From Escherichia coli (GTDB lineage: Bacteria > Pseudomonadota > Gammaproteobacteria > Enterobacterales > Enterobacteriaceae): DNA of 64,000 nt. Each line of letters begins with the position of its first letter. Positions within the stretch are counted from its first letter, which is position 1. The stretch lies in the NCBI RefSeq assembly GCF_046105845.1, contig NZ_CP151004.1; one strand, given 5' to 3'. Both the position numbers and the translations under genes were made by a program. Positions 1-3,715 of this stretch are shown here, one piece after another. Under the pieces are notes generated by a model, which was given only the letters and a program-made list of their open reading frames with translations, was not told the origin of the DNA and did no database searches.

Positions 1-1565
1 AAAACGAGCTGGAAGAAGCGGTAATGAGCGACCGTGACACGGGTGCAGCGGCTGAACCGCGCGCGCCGGTTGTGACCATCATGGGTCACGTTGACCACGG
101 TAAAACCTCTCTACTGGACTACATTCGTTCAACGAAAGTGGCCTCTGGCGAAGCGGGCGGCATTACCCAGCACATTGGTGCATACCACGTTGAAACTGAA
201 AACGGCATGATCACCTTCCTGGACACCCCGGGGCACGCCGCGTTTACTTCAATGCGTGCTCGTGGTGCGCAGGCAACGGACATCGTAGTCCTGGTTGTTG
301 CTGCCGACGACGGCGTAATGCCGCAGACCATCGAAGCAATCCAGCACGCGAAAGCGGCGCAGGTTCCGGTGGTCGTTGCAGTGAACAAGATCGATAAACC
401 AGAAGCCGATCCGGATCGCGTTAAGAACGAACTCTCCCAGTACGGCATCCTGCCGGAAGAGTGGGGCGGTGAAAGCCAGTTCGTACATGTGTCTGCGAAA
501 GCGGGTACTGGTATCGATGAGCTGCTGGACGCTATCCTGCTGCAGGCGGAAGTTCTGGAACTGAAAGCGGTACGTAAAGGCATGGCGAGCGGTGCGGTTA
601 TCGAATCCTTCCTCGATAAAGGTCGTGGTCCGGTTGCTACCGTTCTGGTACGTGAAGGTACTCTGCACAAGGGCGATATCGTTCTGTGTGGCTTCGAATA
701 CGGTCGTGTTCGTGCGATGCGTAACGAACTGGGTCAGGAAGTGCTGGAAGCGGGTCCGTCCATTCCGGTGGAAATCCTCGGCCTGTCCGGCGTTCCGGCT
801 GCGGGTGATGAAGTTACCGTTGTACGTGACGAGAAGAAAGCGCGTGAAGTTGCACTCTATCGTCAGGGTAAATTCCGCGAAGTTAAACTGGCGCGTCAGC
901 AGAAATCTAAACTCGAGAACATGTTCGCCAACATGACCGAAGGCGAAGTTCACGAAGTGAATATCGTCCTGAAGGCAGACGTACAGGGTTCCGTGGAAGC
1001 TATCTCCGACTCCTTGCTGAAACTGTCTACTGACGAAGTTAAAGTGAAGATCATCGGTTCTGGCGTAGGTGGTATCACCGAAACCGACGCTACCCTGGCT
1101 GCGGCGTCCAACGCCATCCTGGTTGGCTTCAACGTACGTGCTGATGCCTCTGCACGTAAAGTAATTGAAGCGGAAAGCCTGGATCTGCGTTACTACTCCG
1201 TCATCTATAACCTGATCGACGAAGTGAAAGCGGCAATGAGCGGTATGCTGTCTCCGGAACTGAAACAACAGATTATCGGTCTGGCGGAAGTTCGTGACGT
1301 ATTCAAATCACCGAAATTTGGTGCCATCGCAGGTTGTATGGTTACCGAAGGTGTGGTTAAACGTCACAACCCGATCCGCGTTCTGCGCGACAACGTGGTT
1401 ATCTACGAAGGCGAGCTGGAGTCCCTGCGCCGCTTCAAAGATGACGTTAACGAAGTCCGTAACGGTATGGAATGTGGTATCGGCGTTAAGAACTACAACG
1501 ACGTCCGCACTGGTGATGTGATCGAAGTATTCGAAATCATCGAAATCCAACGTACCATCGCTTAA
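1..1565 (+). CDS. infB: Translation initiation factor IF-2, C-terminal part (5' end lies outside the window)
   Basis: Reading frame is open from the window edge; translation contains the GTP-binding motifs ([17 protein letters not shown]) and the IF-2 C-terminal domain sequence; stop at 1563-1565. Confidence 0.97.
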
Positions 1566-1578
1566 GGTTGTCTGGGTT

Positions 1579-1656
1579 GTAGGCCGGATAAGGCTTTTAC
1601 GCCGCATCCGGCAGCCGTTGCCTGATGCGACGCTCGCGCGTCTTATCAGGCCTACA
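1579..1656. repeat. Two REP (repetitive extragenic palindromic) units forming a BIME-like element in the infB-rbfA spacer
   Basis: gtaggccggataaggc...gccgcatccggca followed by gcctgatgcgacgc...gcgtcttatcaggcctaca; classic REP palindromes. Confidence 0.8.
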
Positions 1657-1683
1657 CAGCCCTTTCCACCTGAGATTAATTTT

Positions 1684-1707
1684 AAAAGGGGCTATGGCCC
1701 CTTTTTT
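1684..1707 (+). terminator. Terminator-like hairpin with T-run immediately upstream of the rbfA ribosome-binding site (possible attenuator)
   Basis: aaaaggggc-tatg-gcccctttttt; SD aggag at 1711-1715 and rbfA ATG at 1724 follow directly. Confidence 0.5.
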
Positions 1708-1723
1708 GTCAGGAGAATTTATT

Positions 1724-2125
1724 ATGGCGAAAGAATTTGGTCGCCCGCAGCGCGTAGCGCAGGAAATGCAAAAAGAGATCGCTCTCATCCTGCAGCGTGA
1801 AATTAAAGATCCTCGTCTGGGCATGATGACCACCGTTTCCGGTGTCGAAATGTCTCGCGACCTGGCGTATGCCAAAGTATATGTAACGTTCCTCAACGAC
1901 AAAGATGAAGACGCGGTTAAAGCGGGCATCAAAGCGCTGCAGGAAGCTTCTGGTTTCATCCGCAGCCTGCTGGGGAAAGCGATGCGCCTGCGTATCGTGC
2001 CGGAACTGACCTTCTTCTACGACAACTCGCTGGTTGAAGGGATGCGCATGTCAAACCTGGTGACCAGCGTGGTCAAACATGACGAAGAACGTCGTGTTAA
2101 CCCGGACGACAGCAAGGAGGACTAA
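1724..2125 (+). CDS. rbfA: Ribosome-binding factor A (30S maturation, cold-shock)
   Basis: 133-aa product [20 protein letters not shown]...; SD aggag 9 nt upstream; the larger ORF 1625..2125 starts inside the REP spacer, so the internal ATG is preferred. Confidence 0.93.
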
Positions 2126-3069
2126 TGAGTCGTCCTCGTCGTCGCGGTCGCGACATTAACGGTGTTTTGTTGCTGGATAAACCGCAGGGTATGTCCAGCA
2201 ACGATGCGCTGCAAAAAGTGAAACGTATATATAACGCCAACCGTGCCGGGCATACCGGTGCGCTGGACCCGCTGGCGACCGGCATGTTGCCGATTTGCCT
2301 CGGGGAAGCGACGAAGTTTTCCCAGTATCTGTTGGACTCCGACAAACGCTATCGGGTCATTGCGCGTCTTGGACAGCGTACCGATACTTCTGATGCCGAC
2401 GGACAAATCGTTGAAGAACGTCCGGTAACCTTTAGCGCAGAGCAACTGGCGGCGGCACTGGATACTTTCCGTGGCGATATCGAACAGATCCCATCGATGT
2501 ATTCAGCACTGAAATACCAGGGCAAAAAACTGTACGAATATGCACGTCAGGGCATTGAAGTTCCGCGTGAAGCGCGTCCGATTACCGTTTATGAACTGCT
2601 GTTTATTCGCCATGAAGGCAATGAGCTGGAGCTGGAAATTCACTGCTCAAAAGGCACTTATATCCGCACCATCATTGATGACCTGGGTGAAAAACTCGGT
2701 TGTGGCGCGCATGTTATTTACCTGCGTCGTCTGGCGGTAAGTAAATATCCGGTTGAACGGATGGTGACCCTGGAACATCTGCGTGAACTGGTTGAGCAAG
2801 CCGAACAGCAGGATATTCCGGCTGCGGAGTTACTTGATCCATTACTGATGCCAATGGACAGTCCAGCTTCGGACTACCCGGTGGTGAATCTTCCGTTAAC
2901 GTCTTCTGTTTACTTCAAAAATGGTAACCCGGTTCGTACATCCGGTGCGCCGCTGGAAGGACTGGTTCGCGTTACAGAAGGTGAGAACGGCAAGTTTATC
3001 GGTATGGGCGAAATTGACGATGAAGGCCGCGTCGCGCCTCGTCGGCTGGTGGTTGAATACCCGGCGTAA
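2125..3069 (+). CDS. truB: tRNA pseudouridine-55 synthase
   Basis: 314-aa ORF; start ATG overlaps the rbfA stop (TAATG); TruB family sequence with the HTGALD catalytic region. Confidence 0.96.
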
Positions 3070-3121: not shown

Positions 3122-3487
<366 letters not shown>

Positions 3488-3499
3488 TTCTTGCGAGTT

Positions 3500-3715
3500 T
3501 CAGAAAAGGGGGCCTGAGTGGCCCCTTTTTTCAAGCTGACGGCAGCAATTCACTGGAAACTAATGTATTGTTGCTATGAATGATCTTCCGTTGCAGAGGT
3601 TCGCGCGGCTAATGAGAGGCTTTACCCACATTGGGCTGGGTTAGGGTTGTCATTAGTCGCGAGGATGCGCAGAAGATCGGGTATTAACACCAGTGCCGTA
3701 AGGTACTGTCTAAGA
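3500..3715 (-). ncRNA. sraG: Candidate antisense small RNA in the rpsO-pnp intergenic region (SraG/PsrO-like); boundaries approximate
   Basis: From memory, a small RNA is transcribed antisense to the pnp leader in this spacer. On the minus strand a TTACGA-N19-TAATAT promoter-like element lies near 3735-3765 and the rpsO hairpin could serve as terminator. Ends are not determined from sequence. Confidence 0.3.
3505..3532. terminator. rpsO intrinsic terminator (symmetrical hairpin, probably bidirectional)
   Basis: aaaagggggcc-tgagt-ggccccttttttc; A-run on one side and T-run on the other so it can terminate either strand. Confidence 0.85.

Follow-up and report, generated by a model that had tools for sequence, protein, structure and literature searches.

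The hairpin that immediately precedes rbfA in the window (the whole 64-kb stretch of Escherichia coli DNA analysed here) is very probably a leaky Rho-independent terminator, the element published as t3 at the end of the metY-rimP-nusA-infB transcription unit. This reading follows from the canonical anatomy of the element, its excess over chance expectation and its conservation in related species, while the transcript ends at this site are taken from published papers. The hairpin is already known as a terminator named in the literature, and no discovery is added by recognising it here. What the comparative analysis contributes is a modest, useful annotation, namely a 45-nt module, consisting of the terminator and the rbfA Shine-Dalgarno (SD) sequence, that is fixed across Enterobacteriaceae and Erwiniaceae. 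As a terminator, the t3 site would set the output of RbfA (ribosome assembly) and TruB (tRNA pseudouridine synthase) relative to IF2 and NusA, and it is central to the dispute on whether cold-shock proteins induce rbfA through antitermination.

Anatomy and folding of the infB-rbfA spacer

The infB and rbfA genes are annotated in RefSeq under the 99.8% match that positions 1400-1900 find in several complete E. coli genomes. The spacer between them is 158 nt long and contains a single terminator-like hairpin (Table 1). The element proper (1684-1707, AAAAGGGGCUAUGGCCCCUUUUUU), which is followed by GUC, the AGGAG motif and the rbfA ATG, lies on the + strand, is co-directional with infB and starts 119 nt past the infB stop codon. 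The original prediction described a GC stem with a T6 run ending 4 nt before the rbfA SD, just downstream of two REP units and inside a nusA-infB-rbfA-truB-rpsO-pnp transcription unit. This description is borne out. Stem and U6 occupy 1688-1701 and 1702-1707, respectively; three bases separate position 1707 from the SD at 1711; a REP-derived Rfam model matches the sequence just upstream; and infB, rbfA, truB, rpsO and pnp are found in that order.

Table 1 Features of the infB-rbfA region and of the downstream genes in the window
Feature	Position	Strand	Evidence or remark
infB (IF2), 3' part	1-1565	+	ORF; TAA stop codon at 1563-1565
Post-stop flank GGUUGUCUGGGUUGU	1566-1580	+	5' strand of a long stem around the REP pair; predicted to pair with 1656-1670 in minimum free energy folds
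Two inverted REP units (BIME)	1582-1652	+	Rfam RF02564 naRNA4, a REP-derived model; 78.7 bits, E 2.5e-13
Spacer segment ACAGCCCUUUCCACC	1656-1670	+	3' strand of the REP-enclosing stem; 1658-1665 alternatively pairs with 1686-1693
A-tract AAAA	1684-1687	+	Located 5' of the stem; complementary to the initial UUUU of the U-tract
G+C core stem-loop GGGGC-UAUG-GCCCC of the probable intrinsic terminator (published name t3)	1688-1701	+	Sequence, folds, alignment
U-tract, U6 (1702-1707) then GUC	1702-1710	+	Sequence
rbfA Shine-Dalgarno AGGAG	1711-1715	+	GGAGA invariant in 81 sequences
rbfA	1724-2125	+	ATG at 1724; 133 codons plus stop; 100% identity to E. coli RbfA; Pfam PF02033
truB	2125-3069	+	ORF and annotation context
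rpsO	3218-3487	+	ORF and annotation context; pnp follows
rpsO terminator GGGGCC-UGAGU-GGCCCC-U6	3505-3531		Also reads on the minus strand, as the terminator of SraG

The predicted hairpin comprises nine pairs (five G-C and four A-U) and a 4-nt loop, with a folding energy of -13.1 to -13.5 kcal/mol; the G+C core by itself is worth -8.7 kcal/mol. The three features expected of an intrinsic terminator, i.e., a G+C stem-loop, a U-tract directly 3' of it and a co-directional location downstream of a gene, are all present. The core is also predicted to form within its natural context, as its pairing probability in the full intergenic RNA is at least 0.78 in 80 of 80 sequences, with a median of 0.98. 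Compared with shuffled sequences, short segments containing the hairpin show folding z-scores of -1.65 to -2.8. These values are modest because shuffles of a composition so biased towards runs of G, C, A and U also fold fairly well.

The window was also searched with a strict terminator pattern, consisting of a perfect 5-bp all-G/C stem and a loop of 3-8 nt, followed by T residues in at least 5 of 6 and at least 6 of 8 positions. Two sites were found in the 64 kb, both strands included; the average over 100 dinucleotide shuffles is 0.11. One is the infB-rbfA hairpin, and the other is the rpsO terminator, where the pattern spans 3509-3525. A consensus terminator scan of the window did not list the 1684-1707 hairpin, probably because the stem is extended through the A-U pairs, leaving too few U residues in the tail. 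That scan may systematically overlook terminators featuring an A-tract 5' of the stem.

Conservation of the terminator-plus-SD module

A 71-nt module is located directly upstream of rbfA in 5,422 of 5,426 complete E. coli genomes. The four remaining genomes have no match to the module at all, and insertion of an IS is a possible cause of its absence; in a published heat-evolved strain, an IS10 element sits between infB and rbfA. The allele found in the window, with the loop UAUG, is a minority form shared at 99% identity or more by 473 of the 5,422 genomes. The K-12-type allele, present in approximately 4,940 genomes, is about 92% identical to it and differs in the loop (GGGGCU-AAC-AGCCCC).

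The comparison was extended to the RbfA loci of 80 other Enterobacteriaceae species, for a total of 82 sequences with E. coli, 81 of which were aligned. The comparison covers Enterobacteriaceae and Erwiniaceae, as Yersinia, Vibrio, Pasteurellaceae and Pseudomonas were not reached among the best 120 RbfA protein matches. Each of the 82 E. coli and Enterobacteriaceae sequences has a perfect hairpin immediately preceding the rbfA SD. Stems feature 6-11 pairs, at least five of which are G-C, and enclose 33 distinct loops. The distance from the end of the stem to the rbfA ATG ranges from 17 to 26 nt throughout the set. In the 81-sequence alignment, the two central G residues of the 5' arm, the C-run of the 3' arm and the GGAGA of the SD are invariant. 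An AAAA or AAAAA tract precedes the stem in most genera, and the 9 bases that follow the stem include at least six T in 74 of the 81 sequences and seven T in 55.

Seven more loci, mostly from Erwiniaceae (Erwinia, Tatumella, Pantoea, Izhakiella, Duffyella, Mangrovibacter and Tenebrionibacter), carry a strong G+C hairpin at the same place, bringing the total to 89 sequences. The G+C stem is longer in six of the seven, and four of them exhibit an internal double change from G-C to A-U, as in GGGAGGC(C)...(G)GCCUCC(C). Double changes from A-U to G-C are also seen in the stem. Thirteen double-change cells, a number reached by no shuffle, were counted in a structure-fitted alignment in which the homopolymer arms also pair in slid registers. 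Since the arms are homopolymers, the count hardly separates the true register from a slid one: 88.9% of the cells are paired in register and 84.7% when the arms are slid by +1. Perfect stems, freely varying loops and double changes suggest, at the level of sequence, that the structure of the stem has been maintained in evolution.

The strength of the stem and the quality of the U-tract vary in opposite directions. Genera that have only five G-C pairs carry a U6-U7 tail. In genera with seven G-C pairs (approximately -15 kcal/mol), tails are eroded to GAUUUGU, GUUUUGU or UUAUUUG, and Erwiniaceae forms combine the tail GAAUUAUUUG with a G+C stem of 7-8 bp. U-tracts are interrupted because A-U pairs at the base of the stem have turned into G-C pairs. 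Six to eight G-C pairs coexist with an interrupted U-tract in 25 of the loci. Termination may be much more efficient in some genera than in others, or the hairpin might serve a second function; its retention in several lineages despite a poor U-tract suggests that it is perhaps selected for more than termination.

In Salmonella, Klebsiella, Citrobacter, Raoultella and other genera (26 loci in all), the U-tract is separated from the rbfA SD by a U-rich insert of 6-9 nt, e.g., UCUUUAUUC, so that the spacing of hairpin and SD is not under strict constraint.

Owing to the insertion of zero to three REP units, the length of the infB-rbfA spacer varies between 62 and 284 nt in Enterobacteriaceae, while the 45-nt terminator-plus-SD module is constant. 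Species with a spacer of 62-69 nt and no REP retain the hairpin. Since the module is fixed while REP units vary, the hairpin is neither derived from REP sequences nor dependent on them. Membership of the hairpin in the REP/BIME family was accordingly rejected, as the REP model covers 1582-1652 only and the hairpin persists in the absence of REP. The REP pair of the window is closer to the REP consensus than that of K-12 (78.7 and 68.1 bits, respectively). REP hairpins are known mRNA stabilisers; together with the 3' hairpin, they should shield terminated infB mRNA from 3' exonucleases. Naville & Gautheret 2010 reported a candidate attenuator, based on the BIME and located 5' of gatY, rbfA and cvpA, which shares with the present element the intergenic region and the claim of premature termination. 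Their element, however, is the REP/BIME repeat, whereas the hairpin described here is separate from it and, being present where REP units are absent, is older than the BIME.

Probable termination, read-through and possible alternative roles of the hairpin

The text of Brandi et al. 2019 (NAR 47:4638, PMC6511841), citing Plumbridge & Springer 1983, places a terminator called t3 just upstream of rbfA. The hairpin is this t3, an identification made by position, as the relevant text carries no coordinates. Species, position and predicted RNAs are the same as for the t3 of the metY-rimP-nusA-infB operon, and there is no difference of substance between the two; relative to the t3 of K-12, which has the loop U-AAC-A, the window allele carries the loop UAUG. 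Northern analyses described in the same text revealed a rimP-nusA-infB RNA of approximately 4.8 kb, which is not recognised by an rbfA probe, and a read-through RNA of approximately 6.7 kb, which is recognised by rimP, nusA, infB and rbfA probes. Steady-state mRNA levels are reported there in the order nusA > infB > rimP > rbfA, the level of rbfA being about half that of infB. The first option of the original proposal, a partial terminator setting the dosage of rbfA-truB relative to infB, is supported by these data.

The check by Term-seq suggested along with that proposal gave no clean confirmation. For MG1655, the curated Term-seq list of Adams et al. 2021 (PMC7815308), which covers three conditions, places no 3' end on the minus strand between 3311708 and 3318213, and the 3' end of t3 expected in K-12 (3313195-3313200, minus strand) falls inside this empty interval. 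As the list is confined to dominant ends, about 900-1,200 for each condition, its silence at the site is weak counter-evidence. The TERMITe and SMRT-Cappable-seq data sets contain no entry under rbfA or infB and are uninformative for the site.

According to the terminator reading, the GGGGC/GCCCC hairpin would form in the nascent RNA when the polymerase reaches positions 1706-1710 or thereabouts. The hairpin and the weak rU:dA hybrid of U6 would then release a fraction of the transcripts before the rbfA ribosome-binding site is synthesised, and the remaining transcripts would run on into rbfA-truB and, in part, into rpsO-pnp. The expected outcome is a level of rbfA-truB mRNA lower than that of infB mRNA, about half of it by the published figures. 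We infer both the efficiency of termination at t3 and the point of release, which should lie at about 1706-1710 given the general behaviour of intrinsic terminators.

Termination at t3 might be regulated, read-through being set by a factor such as RNA chaperones of the CspA family, which would melt the hairpin at low temperature, or NusA, which would enhance termination within the feedback that it exerts on the operon encoding it. We regard such a regulated attenuator as rather unlikely. It would fit a hairpin that has a short 5-bp G+C core (-8.7 kcal/mol) and is therefore marginal enough to be tipped by factors, in front of a gene that is described as a cold-shock gene in the text of PMC6511841. 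According to papers citing Bae et al. 2000, the metY-rpsO operon has internal terminators upstream of rbfA, and overproduced CspA, CspC and CspE reduce termination inside this operon, with more nusA and rbfA being expressed. However, Brandi et al. dispute (PMC6511841) that antitermination is the cause of cold induction, and rbfA is not raised by CspD overproduction according to a citing paper. A role mainly in RNA stability, with the hairpin blocking 3' exonucleases on infB mRNA or stabilising a processed rbfA-truB mRNA from its 5' side, and with termination being a side effect, appears improbable. REP hairpins adjoin t3, and the hairpin is kept more strictly than the U-tract, as evidenced by the tails of Erwiniaceae and several Enterobacteriaceae (GAAUUAUUUG, GAUUUGU, UUAUUUG). 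E. coli and most genera nonetheless have a canonical U6-U7 tail, seven of nine bases being T in 55 of 81 sequences, and erosion of the U-tract tracks the replacement of A-U by G-C pairs at the base of the stem, a trade of tail for strength that is typical of terminators. Moreover, a transcript that ends upstream of rbfA is documented in the text of PMC6511841.

It is also quite improbable that the hairpin, located 3 nt upstream of the SD, is a translational element that tunes binding of the 30S subunit to rbfA as a standby site or by occlusion. The tight spacing seen in 82 of 82 sequences, with 17-26 nt from the end of the stem to the ATG, is what such a role would predict, but several genera tolerate an insert of 6-9 nt between the U-tract and the SD. 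In folds of the read-through RNA, neither the hairpin nor downstream sequence sequesters the SD; the SD and the AUG are predicted to be unpaired, which makes translational occlusion unlikely, and the fold of 1675-1800 is unremarkable, with a z-score of -0.8. The probability that the hairpin is a palindrome arisen by chance, or a piece of the adjacent REP elements devoid of a function of its own, is close to negligible. Although the z-scores of short segments are modest, the strict pattern occurs twice where 0.11 occurrences are expected, and the hairpin is conserved in 89 sequences, including those that feature no REP; the REP model, in turn, stops at 1652.

A competing pairing specific to the allele was found in the spacer. 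In the window, AGCCCUUU (1658-1665) can pair with AAGGGGCU (1686-1693), the 5' arm of the terminator. The predicted duplex has an energy of -12.5 kcal/mol, compared with -7.2 +/- 2.2 kcal/mol in shuffles, 1.7% of which are as good. In an RNA ending at 1701, masking the 10-18 nt immediately downstream of the infB stop codon lowers the probability of the terminator from 0.98 to 0.01-0.27, in a calculation that was made post hoc and considers folding at equilibrium only. Masking has little effect in the K-12 allele, where the terminator keeps a probability of 0.75-0.98, and the spacer segment involved in the competing pairing is conserved only within Escherichia and Pseudocitrobacter. A conserved antiterminator was not found among 80 sequences, as the competitor lowers the probability of the terminator below 0.5 in only 11 of them, and solely under masking of the post-stop flank. 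On these grounds, the hairpin was rejected as an attenuator of the classical type, in which the antiterminator is conserved.

These folds would be compatible with a switch made of three helices and responsive to the ribosome terminating on infB, in the Escherichia lineage and clearest in the window allele, an arrangement that we consider very unlikely. Pairing of 1566-1580 with 1656-1670 would keep the spacer segment off the terminator. A ribosome located on the infB stop codon would free 1658-1665, which could then pair with 1686-1693 and favour read-through into rbfA-truB. If this were true, the logic would be trp-like, and expression of a 30S-assembly factor would be coupled to ongoing translation of IF2.

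Other terminators of the operon complex

The rimP leader of the same operon (Rfam RF01770), which carries the tandem terminators t1 and t2, likewise features a GGGC...GCCC hairpin and a U7 tract before a 30S-assembly gene. In the K-12 comparison locus (L082, positions 625-700), which covers the rimP leader outside the window, the end of rimP t2 (GGGCU-UUA-GGCCC-U7) lies 17 nt upstream of the start codon of rimP; for t3 and rbfA, the corresponding distance is 16 nt. Both 30S-assembly genes of the operon are thus preceded by a terminator that abuts the ribosome-binding site. The rimP leader is a plausible target of the same NusA feedback as t3. No significant sequence similarity was detected between rimP t2 and t3, as a model of the rbfA module scores 5.6 bits on rimP t2. 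Kinship with the rimP leader was rejected, since RF01770 scores 102 bits on the true rimP leader and yields no match at the rbfA site (E<=10) or in the window (E<=1). The likeness of t3 to rimP t2 is generic to terminators with a G+C stem.

The rpsO terminator belongs to the same operon complex as t3 and shares its design (GGGGCC...GGCCCC-U6). It is stronger than t3 (-17.1 vs -13.1 kcal/mol), and, in contrast to t3, is placed at the end of a gene pair and used from both strands. The leader of S15, the rpsO product (RF00114), and, on the minus strand, SraG (RF00082) are also present in the window, at 3160-3274 and 3504-3675, respectively.
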